64,000 bases of DNA from Escherichia phage vB_EcoM_P8. The notes below the pieces were generated by a model that saw nothing but the letters and a program-made list of their open reading frames with translations, made no database searches and had not been told where the DNA came from. The DNA is taken from the sequence record PV390659.2. One strand, written 5' to 3'. Positions 16,509 to 57,948 of this stretch are shown here, piece by piece. Each line of letters begins with the position of its first letter. The first letter of the stretch is position 1. The position numbers and the translations under genes were made by a program.

Positions 16509-18074
16509 TTAGATACCTTTAACATATACACGGCGGAAGTAAGCGTTTTTACCAAGGCTATTCAGAATAGAAGGCATACCGCTTTGAATGCGAGAAGCCG
16601 GAGCCTGAGCAGCGGATTCTGCAAATGGGTTGATACCGATACCGTAACGAGTTTTGAATCCCATTACTGGTTGGAAGTTCTTCGGATCGGAACCACGCAG
16701 CGGAGTCAGAGCTACATATGGAGCATAGTAAATACCAGCATCCATTTCGTTCGGACCTTTATAACCTACAGTGAAATAATCCTGTTTAGCATACTGGTCG
16801 ATATATACACGGTATTTACCACCCAGAACACCAGCAAATACTGACTTGGTAGTATCAGTGTTAAAGCCGGTAGCCAGACCCTGTGCAGCATAAGAAATGC
16901 CAGTATCAACTGAAGCCAGAACGTTAACTACGTTACGGGAAGCGATAATGAAGTTACCTTCACCACGACCGGTCTGACGAGCAATTTCAACTGCTTCTTT
17001 GTCAATCTGGAACAACAGAGCTTTAAAGGATTCACCCGCCCAGCGAGCACCACGAATATCAATCGGATCCTGGAAGTCAAATACACCAGCTTTAGAACCC
17101 GGAGTCAGGGTCATACCAGATTTACCAACCTGAGCTGAGTAGTTAATCCAATCAACAACTTCACGGTTAATTTCCAGCATGATTTCGGTAGCCAGAATAC
17201 CAGACAGTTCAGCATCAGCATCCATACCGTGAACAGCGCGGAGGTCTTGTGCTAATTCGATAGAGTAAGCAGCTTTCAGCTGACGAGATTTAGCTTCGAT
17301 AACTTGTTTATCGATACGGAAGCCCATTTCATTCCATGGGTTATCGGTAGAACCGTTGAAACCTTCCTGAAGTTCAGCGATAGAAGTAGCCATACCTTCA
17401 GCGATTTCTACCAGTACACCAGCTTCCATTTGTTTCTTAATTTCAGCATCTAATTTAGCTGCATCAGTTGCGCTTGCACTAATTGTTACTTGAGCAGAAG
17501 CCTGCAGATACACAGTACCAGTGTCCTGGAAGAAGTGAGTATAGATATCACCTACTGTGGTTTCTGTGCTAGCAGCCAGAGCCGGGAATTTCTTAGCAGC
17601 ACCCTGACCAGAGAACATTGCATCTGGACCATACATTGGGTGGAATGCTTCTTTAGCACCGGAAGCGATTGGGTCTTTACCATATACTGCACGCAGTGCG
17701 AATACCTGGCCAGTCGGGCTGTTCATCGGCTGAACACCACAAATATCGAAAGCAATCAGGTTAGGAATAGCACGACGTACCATACCCATAACAGCTGGGC
17801 CAATCTGAGTTACTGCGCCAGAAGTCTGACCAGCAGCGATGTTAGTAGCATTGTAACCGTGGTCACCACCGATTTCAGCTTCTGTTAAGAAAGAACCGAA
17901 CGCCTGAGCGATTTTTTCGTCTTTGTACTCTGGAGCTGTCTGGAAATCTTTTTCCTGGTTTTCAAAGATTTTAGCGATAATCGCTTGTTTGCTATTAGCA
18001 ATTTCCGGTAAACCTTCACCTTCCAGTAATGGCTTCCATTTGTTCAAAAGTTCAGCTTTAGTTTTGATAGTCAT
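16509..18074 (-). CDS. 23: major capsid protein gp23
   Basis: 521 aa; N-terminus MTIKTKAELLNKWKPL as in T4 gp23. Confidence 0.95.
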   Translation of the reverse strand: MTIKTKAELLNKWKPLLEGEGLPEIANSKQAIIAKIFENQEKDFQTAPEYKDEKIAQAFGSFLTEAEIGGDHGYNATNIAAGQTSGAVTQIGPAVMGMVRRAIPNLIAFDICGVQPMNSPTGQVFALRAVYGKDPIASGAKEAFHPMYGPDAMFSGQGAAKKFPALAASTETTVGDIYTHFFQDTGTVYLQASAQVTISASATDAAKLDAEIKKQMEAGVLVEIAEGMATSIAELQEGFNGSTDNPWNEMGFRIDKQVIEAKSRQLKAAYSIELAQDLRAVHGMDADAELSGILATEIMLEINREVVDWINYSAQVGKSGMTLTPGSKAGVFDFQDPIDIRGARWAGESFKALLFQIDKEAVEIARQTGRGEGNFIIASRNVVNVLASVDTGISYAAQGLATGFNTDTTKSVFAGVLGGKYRVYIDQYAKQDYFTVGYKGPNEMDAGIYYAPYVALTPLRGSDPKNFQPVMGFKTRYGIGINPFAESAAQAPASRIQSGMPSILNSLGKNAYFRRVYVKGI

Positions 18075-18092: not shown

Positions 18093-18902
18093 TTAGAAAC
18101 GAGATGCGACTTTCGCATATACACTTACAATATCTTCTGCACCAGGTGCAGCTTTATCTTCTACAGCTTCAGTGACGAAATTCAGTCCGGCTGCTTCAGT
18201 ATCAGGAGTATTTATACCCTCAGTAATAGTGCTTTCATCTTTATTAGACTTCTTCACCATTTCTACGATGGCACTCAATTTATTTGAGAATTCATCTGAA
18301 TAATCCATACCTTCGACCAGAGCAGAGACTTTTTCTTTTTGAGACTCAGTCAGATCTTTAGTACTTTCGCTCAATGCCACTTCACGCTGCACATAATTGA
18401 TATATGCGTCACGCTTATTGAGTTCTTCGAACAGACGAGCTGATTCTTCTTTATGTTCTTGCAGCTCTTCTTCCATTTCAGCCACAACATCAACTGATTC
18501 TTCTGGAACAACAACGTTGTGTTCAACAAAGAGCTCTTTTAATCCACCAAGCATGGATTCAAACAGTTCGGCTTTGATGCCTTTATCAACTGCTAATTTA
18601 TTTTCAGCGAGCCATTCTTTTGCAAGATGGTCGATGAATTTAGAAGCTTGCTCAGCGATTTTCTTCTCAGCTTTTTCTTCGGCTTCTTCTTTATTTTTTT
18701 CTACTTCTTCTTCTGCTTTTTCAGCAATTTTAGCGATATGAGATTCAGCTAATTTAACGGCGTGCTGCTTGACGGTAGCTTCGAATACAGTGCCGAAAGT
18801 TTCTTTTGCTTCCGGAGAAATATTAACTGATTCGAAAATACTATCAAGAGCAACGGAAGCATCAATTTTTTGCGCTTCAGCAATCAGTTGTTCTTTAAGC
18901 AT
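18093..18902 (-). CDS. 22: prohead core scaffold protein gp22
   Basis: 269 aa; acidic, coiled-coil; synteny. Confidence 0.85.
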   Translation of the reverse strand: MLKEQLIAEAQKIDASVALDSIFESVNISPEAKETFGTVFEATVKQHAVKLAESHIAKIAEKAEEEVEKNKEEAEEKAEKKIAEQASKFIDHLAKEWLAENKLAVDKGIKAELFESMLGGLKELFVEHNVVVPEESVDVVAEMEEELQEHKEESARLFEELNKRDAYINYVQREVALSESTKDLTESQKEKVSALVEGMDYSDEFSNKLSAIVEMVKKSNKDESTITEGINTPDTEAAGLNFVTEAVEDKAAPGAEDIVSVYAKVASRF

Positions 18903-18932: not shown

Positions 18933-19571
18933 TTATAACGCTTTTTTCATGGCCTCTGCGAGAGCCATATAGGCGTCATCGGCACTTGTATCGGCTTCCG
19001 CCGTCTGTGATTCGGTAATTTCCTTAGGAGTTACCCATGCATCTGGAGCACTTGGACCCCATACTGCATCAACACCTACAGTTAATTTGAATCCTTCGTT
19101 TACGATACGATAACCTTTATTTGTGTCAGTCAATGAACCTAATCCACGAGAAGAAACTCCTGGAATCCATCCGGCACGAATATTAGCTGCTAATTTATCT
19201 CCAGGACCGTGGTCACCTTCAATAACACGAGCTCGTCCGTATACGTCATTTCCTTTCCACCACATATCTTCTATAATGATAGCGGCTTGCATCGGGTCAA
19301 CATTAGCGCGTGGAGGATGATTTAATTCTCCGAGAGCTTGTTTAGTTAAAACTTGCTCATTAATATAGTCTTTTACCGCTTTTTCTAATATGCGTTTTGG
19401 ATAAAGACGTTTATTTCTATTGACGACTTCTGCTTGCATGAATATTCCTTCGATGTATAAACCCGGTTTTAAACCTAAGTCTTTTCCATCGTGGGATTCG
19501 AGCATTGGCACACCATCAATAATTTCGCCAGGTTGACCCCAAGTTTCAATTAGTAATTGGGGTTCATTCAT
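18933..19571 (-). CDS. 21: prohead protease gp21
   Basis: 212 aa; synteny. Confidence 0.85.
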   Translation of the reverse strand: MNEPQLLIETWGQPGEIIDGVPMLESHDGKDLGLKPGLYIEGIFMQAEVVNRNKRLYPKRILEKAVKDYINEQVLTKQALGELNHPPRANVDPMQAAIIIEDMWWKGNDVYGRARVIEGDHGPGDKLAANIRAGWIPGVSSRGLGSLTDTNKGYRIVNEGFKLTVGVDAVWGPSAPDAWVTPKEITESQTAEADTSADDAYMALAEAMKKAL

Positions 19572-47782: not shown

Positions 47783-48479
<697 letters not shown>

Positions 48480-48487
48480 TTTCACAA

Positions 48488-48524
48488 AGTTGTTTACATA
48501 CTGATGAGGTAGTGATACTATTAT
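48488..48524 (+). promoter_or_regulatory. T4 early-type promoter upstream of ipI
   Basis: GTTTACA -35-like at 48492..48498 and gTGATACTAT extended -10-like element. Confidence 0.5.
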
Positions 48525-48551
48525 CTCATCAAAATTAATTAGGAAAATAAA

Positions 48552-48839
48552 ATGAAAACATTTAAAGAATTTACTTCTACAACTACCCCGGTTTCTACTA
48601 TTACTGAAGCTACTCTTACTTCTGAAGTTATTAAAGCAAATAAAGGACGAGAAGGTAAACCAATGATTAGTTTGGTTGATGGCGAAGAAATCAAAGGTAC
48701 TGTTTACCTAGGTGATGGGTGGTCTGCTAAAAAGGATGGTGCTACAATCGTTATCTCTCCTGCTGAAGAAACTGCGTTGTTTAAAGCTAAACACATTTCT
48801 GCGGCACATCTCAAGATTATTGCTAAAAATCTTTTGTAA
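48552..48839 (+). CDS. ipI: internal protein I precursor
   Basis: 95 aa; mature part ATLTSEVIKANKGREGKPMISLVDGEEIKG... matches T4 IPI*; 19-aa leader ending ITE. Confidence 0.85.
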   Translation: MKTFKEFTSTTTPVSTITEATLTSEVIKANKGREGKPMISLVDGEEIKGTVYLGDGWSAKKDGATIVISPAEETALFKAKHISAAHLKIIAKNLL

Positions 48840-48853
48840 TAAATATTTCACAA

Positions 48854-48890
48854 AGTTGTTTACATAGGGTTTTAGTTGTGATACTATTAC
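48854..48890 (+). promoter_or_regulatory. second copy of the early-type promoter module
   Basis: tttcacaaagttgtttacata ... gtgatactatta, nearly identical to the module upstream of ipI. Confidence 0.5.
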
Positions 48891-48915
48891 CCTATCAACT
48901 ACTGAGGAGAATAAA

Positions 48916-50383: not shown

Positions 50384-50456
50384 TGGGAATTAGCCAAGTT
50401 GGTAAGGCACTGGATTTTGATTCCAGGATGCAAAGGTTCGAGTCCTTTATTCCCAG
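50384..50456 (+). tRNA. tRNA-Gln (anticodon UUG)
   Basis: cloverleaf; acceptor TGGGAAT/ATTCCCA; anticodon loop ttTTGat. Confidence 0.85.
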
Positions 50457-50457
50457 C

Positions 50458-50544
50458 GCGAGAATGGTCAAATTGGTAAAGGCACAGCACTTAAAATGCT
50501 GCGGAATGATTTCCTTGTGGGTTCGAGTCCCACTTCTCGCACCA
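50458..50544 (+). tRNA. tRNA-Leu (anticodon UAA), type II
   Basis: acceptor GCGAGAA/TTCTCGC; long variable arm; CCA encoded. Confidence 0.85.
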
Positions 50545-50549
50545 AATTT

Positions 50550-50623
<74 letters not shown>

Positions 50624-50633
50624 ATTTAATTTA

Positions 50634-50707
50634 CTCCGTGTAGCTCAGTTTGGTAGAGCGCCTGATTTGGGATCAGGAGGTCCAAGGTTCAAATCCTTGT
50701 ATGGAGA
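50634..50707 (+). tRNA. tRNA-Pro (anticodon UGG)
   Basis: D-arm GCTCAGTTTGGTAGAGC; anticodon TGG; two G-U pairs in the acceptor stem; CCA not encoded. Confidence 0.8.
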
Positions 50708-50709
50708 CT

Positions 50710-50799
50710 GGAGGCGTGGCAGAGTGGTTTAATGCACCGGTCTTGAAAACCGGCAGTCGCTCCGGCGACTCATAGGTTCAAATCCTATCGCCTCCGCCA
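50710..50799 (+). tRNA. tRNA-Ser (anticodon UGA), type II
   Basis: acceptor GGAGGCG/CGCCTCC; long variable hairpin. Confidence 0.85.
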
Positions 50800-50804
50800 G
50801 TTTT

Positions 50805-50880
50805 GCTGATTTAGCTCAGTAGGTAGAGCAACTCACTTGTAATGAGAAGGTCGGCGGTTCGATTCCGTCAATCAGCACCA
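50805..50880 (+). tRNA. tRNA-Thr (anticodon UGU)
   Basis: acceptor GCTGATT/AATCAGC; anticodon loop ctTGTaa. Confidence 0.85.
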
Positions 50881-50881
50881 A

Positions 50882-50956
50882 GGCCCTGTAGCTGGAAGGT
50901 TCAAGCAAGCGACTCATAATCGTCAGATGGTGGTTCAATTCCACCCAGGGCCACCA
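50882..50956 (+). tRNA. tRNA-Ile (anticodon CAU, presumably modified)
   Basis: acceptor GGCCCTG/CAGGGCC; anticodon CAT; position after Thr as in the T4 Thr-Ile pair. Confidence 0.75.
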
Positions 50957-50969
50957 AATTAAGAATTAA

Positions 50970-51056
50970 GGGGAGTTATCCCGTAGAGGTAGCGGTGTGG
51001 ACTGTAAATCCATTGTCATTGCGACTCGGGTGGTTCGACTCCATCACTCCCCACCA
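50970..51056 (+). tRNA. tRNA-Tyr-like (anticodon GUA), type II, with an irregular D-arm
   Basis: acceptor GGGGAGT/ACTCCCC; anticodon loop CTGTAAA and variable arm resemble bacterial tRNA-Tyr; the D-arm only folds with a 4-nt linker. Confidence 0.45.
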
Positions 51057-51060
51057 ATTT

Positions 51061-51135
51061 GGATGTGTAGCTCAATGGCAGAGCGATCGCCTGTTAAGCG
51101 ATTGGTTATAGGTTCGAATCCTATCACGTCCGCCA
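51061..51135 (+). tRNA. tRNA-Asn (anticodon GUU)
   Basis: clean 75-nt cloverleaf: acceptor GGATGTG/CACGTCC, D-stem GCTC/GAGC, anticodon loop CTGTTAA, T-loop TTCGAAT, CCA encoded. Confidence 0.75.
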
Positions 51136-51139
51136 AATC

Positions 51140-51215
51140 CGAGGCATAGCTCAGAAGGAAGAGCAAGGACCTTCTAAGTCCTAGGTCGTAGGTTCGATCC
51201 CTACTGCCTCGACCA
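51140..51215 (+). tRNA. tRNA-Arg (anticodon UCU)
   Basis: acceptor CGAGGCA/TGCCTCG; anticodon loop cTTCTaa. Confidence 0.85.
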
Positions 51216-51231: not shown

Positions 51232-51582
51232 ATGAAAGGTAATGTTTATTTAGTAGTTCATGATTTAACATTCTATTTTAATCATAATGACACTGTTATT
51301 TCTGAACGTGTAATTAATTTACTTTATCAGCATGCAGATTATGTTTATGTCGAAAACGAATATGGTCATTGGCAATTTCTCAAAAATCGTTCATTTGGTT
51401 TAGATGGTTACGAATATTTTGAACGTAAAGACCTTTTAGATAAAATTCCGTTATCTACACAATATCAAAATCATAAGTCTTTATATAAATGCCGTCCAAT
51501 TCGAAATGCTGAATCTGCGTATGAAGTAATTGATTTATGGCGTAAACGTCGTGAACAGGTTGATGCTTTAAAAGAATACTAA
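51232..51582 (+). CDS. hypothetical protein, 116 aa
   Basis: ORF with GAGGAAAA ribosome-binding site directly after tRNA-Arg. Confidence 0.5.
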   Translation: MKGNVYLVVHDLTFYFNHNDTVISERVINLLYQHADYVYVENEYGHWQFLKNRSFGLDGYEYFERKDLLDKIPLSTQYQNHKSLYKCRPIRNAESAYEVIDLWRKRREQVDALKEY

Positions 51583-51886
51583 GAAACCGGGTCGCTACCG
51601 GTAAGTCGTCGGACTGATGTTCCCTGGAGTATAGTTTCTCCCACAGTTTTACTGTGTTCTGATTCTTTACTATCACAGCAGAAACGGCGCACCGAATTAT
51701 CGATTCGAGGAAATATCTTTGCCGTAAGCCGAGTAGCGTTTTTGGCGGAACGTTCGGATATGGTCGAGATATGGCCTTTTAAAAATATTGAGTAGCGTCA
51801 ACTGCTTAATAACCGGGTTCGAATCCCGGCGTTTCGTACAAACACTTGCCTTAGCAGGTGGAACCCCGACAAGGTTGCCGCAAGGC
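51583..51886 (+). ncRNA. candidate small stable RNA locus (analogous to the T4 species 1/2 RNAs at the distal end of the tRNA cluster)
   Basis: about 300 nt with no ORF; tRNA-like T-arm CCGGG-TTCGAAT-CCCGG at 51813..51829; ends at a strong terminator. Confidence 0.35.
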
Positions 51887-51888
51887 TT

Positions 51889-51917
51889 AGCCCCGACCGA
51901 AAGGTTGGGGCTTTTTA
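51889..51917 (+). terminator. intrinsic terminator (10-bp stem, GAAA tetraloop, U5)
   Basis: agccccgacc-gaaa-ggttggggct + ttttt. Confidence 0.8.
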
Positions 51918-51918
51918 G

Positions 51919-51926
51919 TATAAATA
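51919..51926 (+). promoter_or_regulatory. late promoter TATAAATA upstream of the 157-aa CTS-like gene
   Basis: exact TATAAATA 40 nt upstream of ATG 51967. Confidence 0.6.
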
Positions 51927-51966
51927 TAGTAGTATATTAAATCCACGAATTAAAACAGGAAATAAG

Positions 51967-52440
51967 ATGAAATCATATGCTCAATTTTTAAATGAAGCGG
52001 TGTTAAATGAAGCATCTAGCACCGAAATTCAAGCTGTCGCAAAAGCAGCCATTGCAGCGGGTAAATATTCCTATAAAGATGCTTCTGACGAATCACGATT
52101 CCAGTTTGCTCGCGACATGAAAGCAGAAGGATTTACGGGAAATGCAGTTAGTATGGCCTGGAAAAGTTTAGTTGCTACTGGCGCTGCTTTTGCAAAGGCT
52201 TCAGGTAAACCTGCTCCTAAAGCAGATCCTAAAGCTGCACAAGAAAAAAATATCGTTAAAGGAATTATCGCTAAATATGAAGCTATCCTTAAAGAGCTTT
52301 TAGTAATCAAAACCGAAGGCCAAAAGTTAGCCCGCGCTTATAGTTTCAAAGATAATCCACATGCTCACTCTCTTGAGTATGTTGAAGACATCCAAAAAAT
52401 TATTAAAGACCGCATTTGGTCTGCTAAACAAATCAAATAA
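51967..52440 (+). CDS. candidate internal (head-packaged) protein, 157 aa, with a capsid-targeting-sequence-like N-terminus
   Basis: N-terminus MKSYAQFLNEAVLNEA resembles the T-even CTS (MKTYQEF...) with L-x-E protease sites; late promoter; AGGAAATAAG ribosome-binding site. Confidence 0.6.
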   Translation: MKSYAQFLNEAVLNEASSTEIQAVAKAAIAAGKYSYKDASDESRFQFARDMKAEGFTGNAVSMAWKSLVATGAAFAKASGKPAPKADPKAAQEKNIVKGIIAKYEAILKELLVIKTEGQKLARAYSFKDNPHAHSLEYVEDIQKIIKDRIWSAKQIK

Positions 52441-52446
52441 CATTTT

Positions 52447-52474
52447 AGCCCCGACCGAAAGGTTGGGGCTTTTT
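52447..52474 (+). terminator. intrinsic terminator, second copy of the same hairpin
   Basis: sequence identical to the 51889 hairpin, followed by tttt. Confidence 0.8.
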
Positions 52475-52603
52475 GATATCTAGGCCTTTCTGGACCTCTC
52501 TAGGCATCATTTAGTTTATACCCTTTATAATATATTATCCTATCCTTTAATTGCCCATCCCTGCCCTAGAATTCCCTAAAACTTTTTAAAAATTTTTTCA
52601 CAA

Positions 52604-52640
52604 AACGGTTTACATCCCCGTTCTTCCATGGTACTATACA
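52604..52640 (+). promoter_or_regulatory. early-type promoter module, third related copy
   Basis: ttcacaaaacGGTTTACAt ... gGTACTATACA. Confidence 0.45.
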
Positions 52641-52681
52641 ACTATCAACTACTGATACAGAAAAACAACTTGGAGAATGAA

Positions 52682-52945
52682 ATGGATAATTACGGCGAAC
52701 TGTTCAACTTCTTTATGAAATGCGTTTCAGAAGATTTCGGTCGTACAGTGAATGATATTAAAGTTATCGGTCCTGATCATCCGATGTTTGAAACTTACGC
52801 AGTAATGGGTAATGAAGATGGTCAGTGGTATACTGTAAAGGTTGTGATTAACATGTTCACTGCTGAAGGTTATGTTAAACTGTCTTCTAAAGTTTACCAT
52901 GATAACGACGAAATCGCAGAAGAATATTTTAATAATATGAAATAA
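52682..52945 (+). CDS. hypothetical protein, 87 aa
   Basis: start moved to ATG 52682 behind a GGAGAA ribosome-binding site. Confidence 0.5.
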   Translation: MDNYGELFNFFMKCVSEDFGRTVNDIKVIGPDHPMFETYAVMGNEDGQWYTVKVVINMFTAEGYVKLSSKVYHDNDEIAEEYFNNMK

Positions 52946-52975
52946 GTTTACATAGGCTCATGATTGAGATATTAT
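52946..52975 (+). promoter_or_regulatory. early-type promoter (GTTTACA ... TATTAT) overlapping a 9-bp-stem hairpin
   Basis: -35-like at 52946..52952, -10-like at 52970..52975; palindrome taggctcat/atgagccta at 52953..52982. Confidence 0.4.
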
Positions 52976-53000
52976 GAGCCTATAATTTGAGGAAACTGTT

Positions 53001-56457: not shown

Positions 56458-56988
<531 letters not shown>

Positions 56989-57047: not shown

Positions 57048-57464
57048 ATGACTCGTATTAATTTGACTTTAGTATCTGAACTTGCTGATCAACATTTAAT
57101 CGCAGAATACCGTGAATTGCCACGCGTTTTTGGTATAGTTCGTAAACACGTGGCAAATGGTAAGCGGGTTAAAGATTTTAAAATATCTTCCGAGTTTATT
57201 TTAGGTTCTGGTCATGTTACGTTCTTTTACGACAAGTTAGAATTTTTGCGAAAGCGTCAATCAGACATTATAATGGAATGCTTAAAACGTGGGTTTAGTA
57301 TAAAAGATACTGAAGTTCCTGACATCAGCGATATTCCAGCAGAATGGAAAAATGATTATAATCCATGCAAATCAGCTATTAAATTGAGTCAACAACGACT
57401 CGATGAAAAAATTTTAATGAAGCCACACTGGTACAAGTATTACGGCAAAAATATTTACATTTAA
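57048..57464 (+). CDS. denV: endonuclease V (pyrimidine-dimer DNA glycosylase)
   Basis: 138 aa; N-terminal [17 protein letters not shown]...YRELPRVFG matches T4 DenV; C-terminus diverged. Confidence 0.9.
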
Positions 57465-57473
57465 AGGAAACAT

Positions 57474-57948
57474 ATGAAAACATATCAAGAATTTATCACT
57501 GAAGCAGCTATTAATTCTCAAATTATTGCTGAATCTTTTACTGATCTTTTGAAATTTAAAAAAAGGTCAAAAAATCACTGCTGTATTGGATGATGGTACA
57601 GAAGTTGAGATGGATGTACAGGGATATAATTATGCAGTAGATGGAAAACTGTATAATAAATCCCATGCTAAATTTGATTCATTTGACGACTTTGTTAATA
57701 CAGTTGAAGATGAAAAAACTCGTAGATCAATTTCAACTGGTGATGCTAAGGTTCTTATGGCACACGGTCATGAACGTATTCGTGCTAAACAGAATAAAAT
57801 GGGTGAAGATAATTTCGCATTAGTTGGTTATCAATCTGGTAAGCAAACTTATGGCTATCAGCGTACTGCTACCATGTATAATAAGAATGGTAAAATCGCT
57901 TTCGTGAATAGTAAAGGTTCTATTCAGTACGTCAAATCATTCAAATAA
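57474..57948 (+). pseudogene. internal-protein-like gene with a CTS leader (MKTYQEFITEA) interrupted by a +1 frameshift in an A7 run (57558..57564)
   Basis: frame-0 ORF 57474..57593 (39 aa) and frame-1 ORF ..57948 join into one 157-aa reading frame if one A is removed; strong ribosome-binding site before 57474. Confidence 0.55.

Follow-up and report, generated by a model that had tools for sequence, protein, structure and literature searches.

A hairpin-bounded late cassette encoding a predicted gp21-processed internal head protein in a T4-like phage

The ORF157 cassette

The 64,000-nucleotide stretch of Escherichia phage vB_EcoM_P8 DNA analysed here (PV390659.2, hereafter the window) carries, between the stable-RNA gene rnaC and a homolog of T4 e.8, a small cassette made up of a T4-type late promoter and a single open reading frame (ORF) of 157 codons, ORF157, bracketed by two copies of a terminator hairpin (Table 1). 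ORF157 is a candidate for an internal protein (Ip) of the phage head, a class of small proteins that in T4 bear an N-terminal capsid targeting sequence (CTS). The 30-mer that forms the hairpin, TTAGCCCCGACCGAAAGGTTGGGGCTTTTT, occurs exactly twice in the window even with up to three mismatches allowed, against zero copies expected by chance. The copies lie 558 bp apart with a likeness that extends to 35 nt at 94% identity, and each consists of a 10-pair stem (7 G-C pairs, one G.U), a GAAA loop and a following T5, a structure that none of 200 shuffles matched in stability. The upstream copy aligns to the single hairpin that T4 has downstream of rnaC, and the downstream copy begins 4 nt past the ORF157 stop codon and forms the right boundary of a 558-bp insertion relative to T4.

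The late promoter octamer TATAAATA is enriched in the window (23 occurrences against 9.6 +/- 3.0 expected) and also precedes the late genes e, 21, 22 and 23. Either this octamer or AATAAATA stands at the same place upstream of ORF157 orthologs in 11 of 12 loci, and the octamer points to a promoter that is presumably active late. The AGGAAA-N-ATGAAA block at the start of ORF157 resembles the translation start of the internal protein gene ipI. A first-pass annotation, made from the letters of the window alone, had described two identical 30-bp repeats forming GAAA-loop terminator hairpins, an exact late promoter, and a 157-aa ORF with L-N-E at residues 8-10 and 13-15; both repeat copies are exact, the octamer is present where it was placed and the ORF is correctly described.

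The predicted protein

ORF157 is a real gene under purifying selection, since the ratio of non-synonymous to synonymous substitution rates (dN/dS) against its orthologs is low (0.05-0.12; 0.05 and 0.09 at 98% and 82% amino-acid identity) and since tblastn places relatives in 511 phage records, at one place per record. The intact N-terminus reads SYAQFLNEAVLNEASSTEIQAVAK, the stretch from A11 AVLNEASSTEIQAVAK and that from A16 ASSTEIQAVAK. The part after the predicted cut at E15 is basic and lysine-rich, with a mass of about 15.4 kDa, an isoelectric point (pI) of 9.6, a net charge of +8 and 24 Lys+Arg. In an AlphaFold model (7-sequence alignment, mean pLDDT 73.5) the leader, residues 1-15, is disordered and is followed by a three-helix N-domain (18-71), a Pro/Ala/Lys-rich (PAK) linker at about residues 76-87 and a C-terminal long antiparallel helical hairpin (88-154). 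The N-domain is strongly kept among relatives, as exemplified by an invariant AGKYSY...R..F..D motif.

The profile of PHROG 2280, a family of unknown function, matches ORF157 over residues 1-157 (E = 4e-60), and no family match was returned by Pfam or NCBIfam. PF11634 (IPI_T4, nuclease inhibitor IPI*) does not match ORF157, although it readily matches the ipI gene of the same window. Consistent with the first-pass remark that the mature part is unlike IPI, BLASTP revealed no similarity to IPI-IPVI, nor to the mature regions of Ip1-3, and structure searches with the model gave no informative fold neighbour. Word-indexed and exhaustive protein searches, the latter a HMMER search covering 1.8 billion representatives with 11 matches, recovered T4-like phage proteins only, all unnamed. 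A close homolog with a housekeeping role, which the first-pass annotation had named as a finding that would overturn its reading, did not emerge from the sequence searches. Three large HMMER matches (P0017-19) were set aside as spurious, since they pair an Ig-like repeat with 'AAGSYSYKAF'.

A run of seven A residues (A7) lies at the end of the linker. Database variants P0006 (111 aa), P0008 (93 aa) and P0009 (108 aa) change frame exactly at this run, after '...AQEK', and their alternative frame matches an ORF at 52172-52303 of the window. About 18 member sequences are shifted in this way and would yield the leader, N-domain and linker only; they may be homopolymer sequencing errors or genuine variants.

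The leader and its relation to T4 capsid targeting sequences

The propeptides of T4 internal proteins comprise 10-19 residues, and the prohead protease gp21 cleaves behind the Glu of L/I-X-E. In T4 the initial 10 residues of IPIII are enough to package foreign proteins; residues 4 and 7 matter most for targeting, and residues 8 and 10 for processing (PMC9026906). The ORF157 leader, MKSYAQFLNE-AVLNE, matches all four mapped positions (Y4, F7, L8 and E10), with Y4 and F7 identical to the residues of IPII, IPIII and IPIV at those positions, and at the sequence level it contains the gp21 motif twice (L8-N-E10 and L13-N-E15), in agreement with the capsid-targeting-like leader of the first-pass annotation. 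Annotated internal proteins begin with MKTYQEFIAE (IPII and IPIII), MKTYQEFITE (IPIV), MKTFKEFIAE (IPVI) and MKTFKEF...ITE (IPI), beside MKSYAQFLNE in ORF157.

When the 705 frames of the window that start with ATG and have 30 codons or more were scanned with a strict pattern, M..[YF]..F[LI].E, it matched at three places only: in ORF157, in the ipIV gene and at a Met inside the C-terminal tail of Alt. As Alt is itself packaged in the head and has a C-terminus removed by gp21, the motif is, in this genome, a highly specific mark of packaged proteins. All 16 of 16 divergent family representatives have the leader, with the aromatic and Phe positions and a following L/I-x-E site, and when the 187-aa and 189-aa paralogs (24-28% identity) are taken into the alignment, seven columns are invariant, four of them M1, F7, L8 and E10. 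Leader length varies within the ORF157 subfamily, yet the Glu that aligns to E15 never changes, and it is followed by A/Q-S-S-[DE]-[VI]. Leaders of close relatives, with a slash at the predicted cut, are MKSYAEFLTE/QSS, MKTYNEFLMTE/ASS, MLEYSEFLKELFCE/AS and MKFKEFLAE/AS, and because the aligned Glu is invariant in all of them the final gp21 cut in ORF157 is most likely after E15.

The coding sequences of the ORF157 and ipIV leaders, compared by eye, are identical at 22 of 30 nt, with no long identical run; a conserved leader peptide despite diverged leader DNA places the conservation at the peptide level. The protease predicted to remove the leader, gp21, and the core protein gp22 are encoded in the same window as ORF157, and gp23 was identified beside their genes (Table 1).

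An ortholog in a virion protein list

Liquid chromatography-tandem mass spectrometry of purified virions of Yersinia phage fD1 marked g140 as particle-associated under a strict threshold, and the neighbouring g138 and g139 (e.8) were not marked (PMC8309999). By its tblastn coordinates, g140 (67942-68415, minus strand, 157 aa, 17.3 kDa) is a 98.1%-identical ortholog of ORF157.

Presence, absence and boundaries of the cassette

The distribution of the cassette among T4-like phages is patchy, and its breakpoints fall exactly at the hairpin repeat, the boundary at which the first-pass annotation had proposed to compare genomes. Positions 51582-51921 of the window align to T4 through rnaD, rnaC and the single T4 hairpin, and positions 52445-52995 align to T4 from that same hairpin on, with 95% identity beyond. 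Between its only hairpin and the e.8 promoter region T4 has nothing; at the same site this phage has a hairpin, a late promoter, ORF157 and a hairpin. ORF157 is also absent from Yersinia phage PST, which again has one hairpin, and DalCa and many other phages carry two tandem cassettes and three hairpins, with the second-cassette gene, encoding a 187-aa protein, found in 165 records. A 1.4-kb region including the locus has matches in 764 records. Judged by this distribution, that is by its absence from T4 and PST and its polymorphic presence among close relatives, ORF157 is dispensable. Empty sites with one hairpin and occupied sites with two are what direct-repeat recombination or integration of a one-repeat circle would be expected to leave, and mini-circle and direct-repeat recombination has been demonstrated for PeSL cassettes in RB49 and phi1 (PMC2839356; PMC4122927). 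We infer that recombination within the duplicated hairpin is the mechanism of gain and loss.

In the loci examined the gene always precedes e.8 or, where the loci are most distant, e.6, and no copy of the cassette was found at any other genomic position in the 511 records. The 'shufflable module' of the first-pass annotation thus stands as regards gain, loss and tandem number at one hotspot, but not as regards movement to other positions. Near-exact hairpin copies occur in 419 phage records at 514 places, with no more than two in any of the records listed, and they sit at the ORF157 locus in all loci examined. These counts, together with the two copies in the window, rule out a generic terminator scattered over the genome, a possibility that the first-pass annotation had itself raised, and the hairpin is best described as a locus-specific terminator downstream of tRNA/stable-RNA genes. 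Both hairpins are variants of the same sequence at Tequatrovirus loci, and three Mosigvirus-like IMG/VR loci have another hairpin as their downstream terminator; exact repeat identity is thus a feature of the lineage and not of the gene.

At least one Jiaodavirus record has the ORF157 homolog as two separate ORFs. In Klebsiella phage KpV477 (locus L013, 3341-3731) the homolog follows tRNA genes and is annotated as two short overlapping coding sequences, kpv477_139 and kpv477_138, which suggests a frameshift or a mis-call in the record.

The 187-aa paralog and the wider family

The product of the second-cassette gene (DalCa_133 / RB14ORF136), which is absent from this window, starts MKTYAEFLTEAAKLPSE and falls in PHROG 2280 (E = 2e-53). 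Pairwise BLAST between it and ORF157 aligns the leader only, the N-domains not being detectably alignable, and a leaderless profile-profile comparison of the two subfamilies gives a probability of 92.6% (E = 4.5e-7) over the C-terminal 71 columns. Both proteins follow the same plan of leader, N-domain, PAK linker and C-terminal helical domain, and both are encoded at the same locus. The 187-aa protein is thus a paralog of ORF157 that shares its leader and C-terminal helical domain and has a different N-domain.

Further members from Yersinia phage fHe-Yen9-01, Escherichia phage EcS1 and metagenomes (P0050, P0058-P0062) have this plan too, with a variable N-domain, a PAK-rich linker of varying length that grows to long PAK repeats in P0060-P0062, and a conserved C-terminal domain containing '...TPDLY...'. 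An earlier view that the Klebsiella and Yersinia relatives have an unrelated C-terminal domain was revised, as P0016 and P0050 bridge the gap and reveal an insertion within one and the same domain. The two paralogs sit next to each other in reversed order in fHe-Yen9-01, so that the duplication is old. Three close leader-bearing ORFs lie in that phage (locus L012, 1700-3537), beginning MKTYIEFINE (52 aa), MLQYNEFLKE (189 aa) and MLEYSEFLKE (178 aa), and no tRNA genes separate them from the e.6 side; the paralogs are 9 nt apart with no hairpin between them.

Together with its paralog, ORF157 makes the interval from rnaC to e.8 an Ip-like locus, distinct from the two that are recognised. A bolder extension, which we consider unlikely on balance, is that this gap is a third Ip locus of the Tevenvirinae: a modular superfamily of injected proteins, composed of a CTS leader, an exchangeable N-terminal 'warhead', a PAK linker and a common C-terminal helical-hairpin 'chassis', each disarming a different first-line defence, with hairpins that enable members to be added, dropped or stacked. 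The N-domain types in such a scheme would be those of ORF157, the 187-aa protein and EcS1, and their targets need not be GmrSD enzymes.

Interpretation and alternatives

We put the probability that ORF157 is a CTS-targeted, gp21-processed internal head protein at roughly 70%. A head-packaged internal protein had already been proposed in the first-pass annotation, and the leader match, the cassette polymorphism and the ortholog in a virion list lend that reading support. To judge from its sequence, the strong hairpin after rnaC would stop early transcription of the tRNA operon and so insulate the cassette, ORF157 would be transcribed only late, from its own TATAAATA, when proheads are built, and the second hairpin would end the message ahead of the early promoter of e.8. 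MKSYAQFLNE, by its motif and by published T4 genetics, would serve as the CTS that binds the protein to the gp22 scaffolding core, and gp21 would then cut after Glu in L-N-E, probably at E15. The product would be a basic, lysine-rich helical protein of 142 aa that lies among the packaged DNA and is expelled into the cell with it. Homologous recombination in the duplicated hairpin, by direct-repeat deletion or integration of a one-hairpin circle, would account for gain and loss of the 558-bp unit.

As for function, analogy with Ip1-3 would have the protein disarm a host defence acting on the incoming DNA before any phage gene is expressed. Ip loci are reportedly highly polymorphic. Ip1 inhibits the type IV restriction enzyme GmrSD of strain CT596, Ip2 and Ip3 each inhibit another GmrSD enzyme without cross-protection, and the Ip genes as a class are non-essential (PMC12373910); IPIII is required on ECOR17, even when supplied leaderless. 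That ORF157 is likewise a specific counter-defence effector is a tentative proposal, drawn from this analogy, to which we give somewhat less than even odds.

Several points count against the interpretation of ORF157 as an injected internal protein of the Ip1-3 kind. The gene lies outside the two loci called Ip loci in the literature (PMC12373910). Its mature part is unlike every characterised anti-defence protein or informative fold compared. When ip4-10 were assayed against GmrSD variants there was no reproducible inhibition, and the analogy may stop at Ip1-3 (PMC12373910). The first-pass annotation had looked to virion mass spectrometry as a check, and here the outcome is mixed: the fD1 ortholog is listed, but among 113 gene products that include DenV, lysozyme and NudE (PMC8309999), and the list, with its soluble enzymes, is supportive rather than conclusive. 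For virions of the Jiaodavirus phages ValerieMcCarty03/04, no hypothetical protein, and so no evident homolog, appears among 40 high-confidence proteins.

The sequence, being basic and containing PAK, would fit an association with DNA just as well. ORF157 might accordingly be packaged and processed and yet be a generic basic protein, interchangeable with other internal proteins, that neutralises charge or assists genome condensation or ejection. Its charge and pI, the PAK linker and its extension in P0060-P0062 would suit such a function, the lysines of T4 internal proteins contact packaged DNA, phosphates included (PMC3012670), and the phage lacks ipII and ipIII and has a frameshifted ipIV. 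A simple substitute is nevertheless not what the co-occurrence of genes suggests: IPIII is present in five of the nine IMG/VR contigs that carry ORF157, on which ground replacement of the missing ipII/ipIII was rejected, and T4 manages without ORF157. The conserved folded N-domain moreover suggests a specific interaction, and all three characterised internal proteins have specific targets, so that we regard a generic role as distinctly unlikely.

Very unlikely, in our estimate, is that ORF157 is a late cytoplasmic protein that is never packaged and whose Ip-like N-terminus, acquired by descent or past recombination, does not function as a signal. The presence of cytoplasmic enzymes in the fD1 list and the position outside the classical Ip loci leave room for it, but a peptide kept when the leader DNA is identical to that of ipIV at 22 of 30 nt only argues for selection and not for a relic of recombination, and the same positions and cleavage site persist in 16 of 16 divergent relatives. 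As the first 10 residues of IPIII suffice in T4 (PMC9026906), a protein made late with such an N-terminus would be expected to enter proheads. It is even less likely, finally, that ORF157 is a transient accessory of the prohead core like gp67 or gp68, targeted, cut up by gp21, expelled before packaging and never injected. A CTS-like leader and late expression would fit this as well, and the C-terminal domain contains a third L-x-E site (LKE, residues 108-110); that single internal site, however, lies inside a predicted helix and is not conserved in relatives, peptides of the ortholog are found in mature fD1 virions, and a dispensable, patchily distributed gene is unexpected for a determinant of head shape.

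Comparison with known systems

ORF157 resembles the T4 internal proteins IPI-III (Ip1-3) and the further T-even internal proteins (IpIV-Ip10; Repoila et al. 1994) in its MK(T/S)(Y/F)x(E/Q)F(I/L)xE leader ending in a gp21 L/I-x-E site, in being small, dispensable, patchy among close relatives and unrelated to other internal proteins in its mature part, and in being encoded, as they are, within the hyperplastic stretch from gene 57B to gene e. It differs in lying between rnaC and e.8 and not in the 57B-tRNA or e-denV Ip locus, from which it is separated by the tRNA cluster and by e.8 through nudE, respectively. Furthermore, it has a late promoter only, with terminator hairpins, whereas ipI in this phage has early-promoter/stem-loop repeats, and its two-domain helical plan with a PAK linker has no relation in sequence or fold to IPI*.

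Like the PeSL cassettes (Arbiol 2010; Comeau 2014), the ORF157 cassette holds a single accessory ORF between direct repeats with a stable stem-loop terminator and breaks at the repeat, with one repeat at empty sites and two at occupied ones as mini-circle integration or excision predicts. Its repeat is the terminator alone, 30-35 bp in contrast to about 100 bp, and its promoter is the late TATAAATA, upstream only and outside the repeat, where PeSL promoters are early and of the sigma-70 type. As the repeat holds no early promoter, the cassette appears to work like a PeSL cassette without being one by definition.

A further parallel is Alt, the packaged T4 ADP-ribosyltransferase, which is loaded into the head, trimmed by gp21 and carries a leader-like motif, GFNQFLVEE, in its C-terminal tail, its C-terminal processing having been seen by published mass spectrometry (PMC9026906). 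Alt is a large conserved enzyme with a known activity, in contrast to the small, variably present ORF157, which has no catalytic signature.

In every record and database name covered, including the curated RB27 record, ORF157 is called 'hypothetical', as is its RB14 paralog. The PST record of the Krisch laboratory names IpIII-IpVI, but PST does not have ORF157. Sequences of ip4-10 are absent from the supplements of Silas et al. 2025. ORF157 is probably a new, widespread and unannotated internal protein of T-even phages, the ORFs of Repoila et al. 1994 (Ip4-Ip13) lying outside this comparison.

Significance

With Ip1-3 each switching off a GmrSD enzyme, other internal proteins are prime candidates for counter-defences that act before phage gene expression. 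The ORF157 gene family, which lies outside the two loci where internal proteins are sought, is represented in over 500 sequenced T4-like phages. These infect E. coli, Shigella, Yersinia, Salmonella and Klebsiella, and many have been put forward for therapy. If ORF157 and its 187-aa paralog are injected, as seems probable, the catalogue of internal proteins would be larger, and a simple sequence rule for finding them would consist of the leader, an L/I-x-E site and a late promoter. Near-identical phages with zero, one or two cassettes provide a natural experiment for determinants of host range, and the ORF157 leader could be an alternative packaging tag in engineering of the T4 head. The reading would be unsurprising in principle to a T4 specialist; it is timely and directly testable.

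Genomic neighbourhood and other leader-bearing genes

The window is from a Tequatrovirus, the region being 100% identical to Escherichia phage vB_EcoM_BMB16 by megablast, and its orientation is antiparallel to the standard T4 map. Genes leading to the cassette are, in order, 1, 57A and 57B, ipI, trna.4, trna.3 and trna.2, ten tRNA genes, a 116-aa ORF, rnaD and rnaC, after which come the cassette, the e.8 homolog, an e.7-like gene, e.6 and e.5. The last gene of the tRNA/stable-RNA operon, rnaC, forms the left flank of the insertion site, and the early promoter of the e.8 homolog, common to T4, forms the right flank of the cassette; in the RB27 record rnaD and rnaC are annotated directly upstream of the ORF157 homolog. 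An Rfam search of the region returned tRNAs only, and a weak match of the hairpin to a beta-proteobacterial toxic small RNA was dismissed (20.7 bits against a 50-bit threshold).

Table 1. Coordinates of the ORF157 cassette, its flanks and related head genes in the window
Feature	Position	Strand	Evidence or remark
ORF157	51967-52440	+	157 aa, begins MKSYAQFLNEAVLNEA
Predicted capsid targeting sequence and propeptide, codons 1-15, MKSYAQFLNEAVLNE	51967..52011	+	Two gp21-type LNE sites, ending at E10 and E15
Predicted mature protein	52012..52440	+	142 aa; span includes stop codon
A7 homopolymer in ORF157, end of linker	52244..52250	+	Read from sequence
Upstream hairpin copy, predicted intrinsic terminator	51887..51916 (stem 51889-51912)	+	Terminator scan; -20.3 kcal/mol, z = -3.3
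T4-type late promoter TATAAATA	51919..51926	+	Exact octamer, 41 nt upstream of ATG
Shine-Dalgarno AGGAA	51957..51961	+	Read from sequence; 5 nt before ATG
Downstream hairpin copy	52445..52474	+	Terminator scan; -20.6 kcal/mol, z = -5.1
rnaC (species 1 RNA) homolog	51700..51838	+	97.8% identity over 139 nt to annotated T4 rnaC
Early sigma-70-type promoter of e.8 homolog, TTTACA-17-TACTAT	52609..52637	+	Promoter scan
e.8 homolog	52682-52945		PHROG 2678; synteny with T4 and RB27
ipI	48552-48839		PF11634 IPI_T4, E = 7e-54
gp23	16509-18074		Identified beside the gp21 and gp22 genes
gp22 scaffold	18093-18902		PF25623; adjoins gene 21
Gene 21, prohead serine protease	18933..19571	-	PF03420 Peptidase_S77, E = 1.5e-111

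The first-pass annotation had spoken of one other leader-bearing gene in the window, which holds for ipI but falls short of the full number, as a frameshifted ipIV and the CTS-like tail of Alt are present too. The ipI gene is flanked by a 54-nt direct repeat, 81% identical between its copies (48479-48532 and 48845-48898), each with an early promoter (TTTACA ... TACTAT) and a short inverted repeat between the hexamers, a PeSL-like arrangement that is the same in T4. Just downstream of denV lies the ipIV gene (57474-57948; phrog_3155 'internal virion protein', E = 1e-101). A frameshift at seven consecutive A residues (A7, 57558-57564) disrupts it, the first frame reading MKTYQEFITEAAINSQIIAESFTDLLKFKKRSKNHCCIG* and the remainder continuing in another frame to 57948. 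Removal of one A restores the full protein, which is intact as 157 aa in T2, PST, fD1 (g129) and RB68; the gene may be a true pseudogene, the homopolymer may have been misread in sequencing, or expression may depend on slippage. T4 has ipIII and ipII between e and denV; here both are missing, and lysozyme e (56494-56988) is followed directly by denV (57048-57464). With these two absent and ipIV broken, the intact small leader-bearing genes within the window are ipI and ORF157 only.

The C-terminal part of Alt occupies 51-1241 on the plus strand (phrog_802), and its motif (1125-1154, ...GEVRPMAGFNQFLVEESKEEENEV...) is a CTS-like F-x-x-F-L-x-E near the C-terminus. Since published mass spectrometry identifies the C-terminus of Alt as a propeptide removed by gp21, a short motif of this kind may be functional at the C-terminus as well as at the N-terminus.

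The tRNA genes (50384-51215) number ten (Gln, Leu, Gly, Pro, Ser, Thr, Met, Tyr, Asn and Arg) against eight in T4, those for Met(CAT), Tyr and Asn being additional, and no tRNA-Ile was called in the window. The 116-aa ORF (51232-51582; phrog_3355, unknown function) lies between tRNA-Arg and rnaD, within the tRNA/stable-RNA operon. T4 and RB27 have nothing at its site, the T4 homing endonuclease gene segB lying slightly further upstream, and it is a further presence/absence polymorphism in the region of ORF157.

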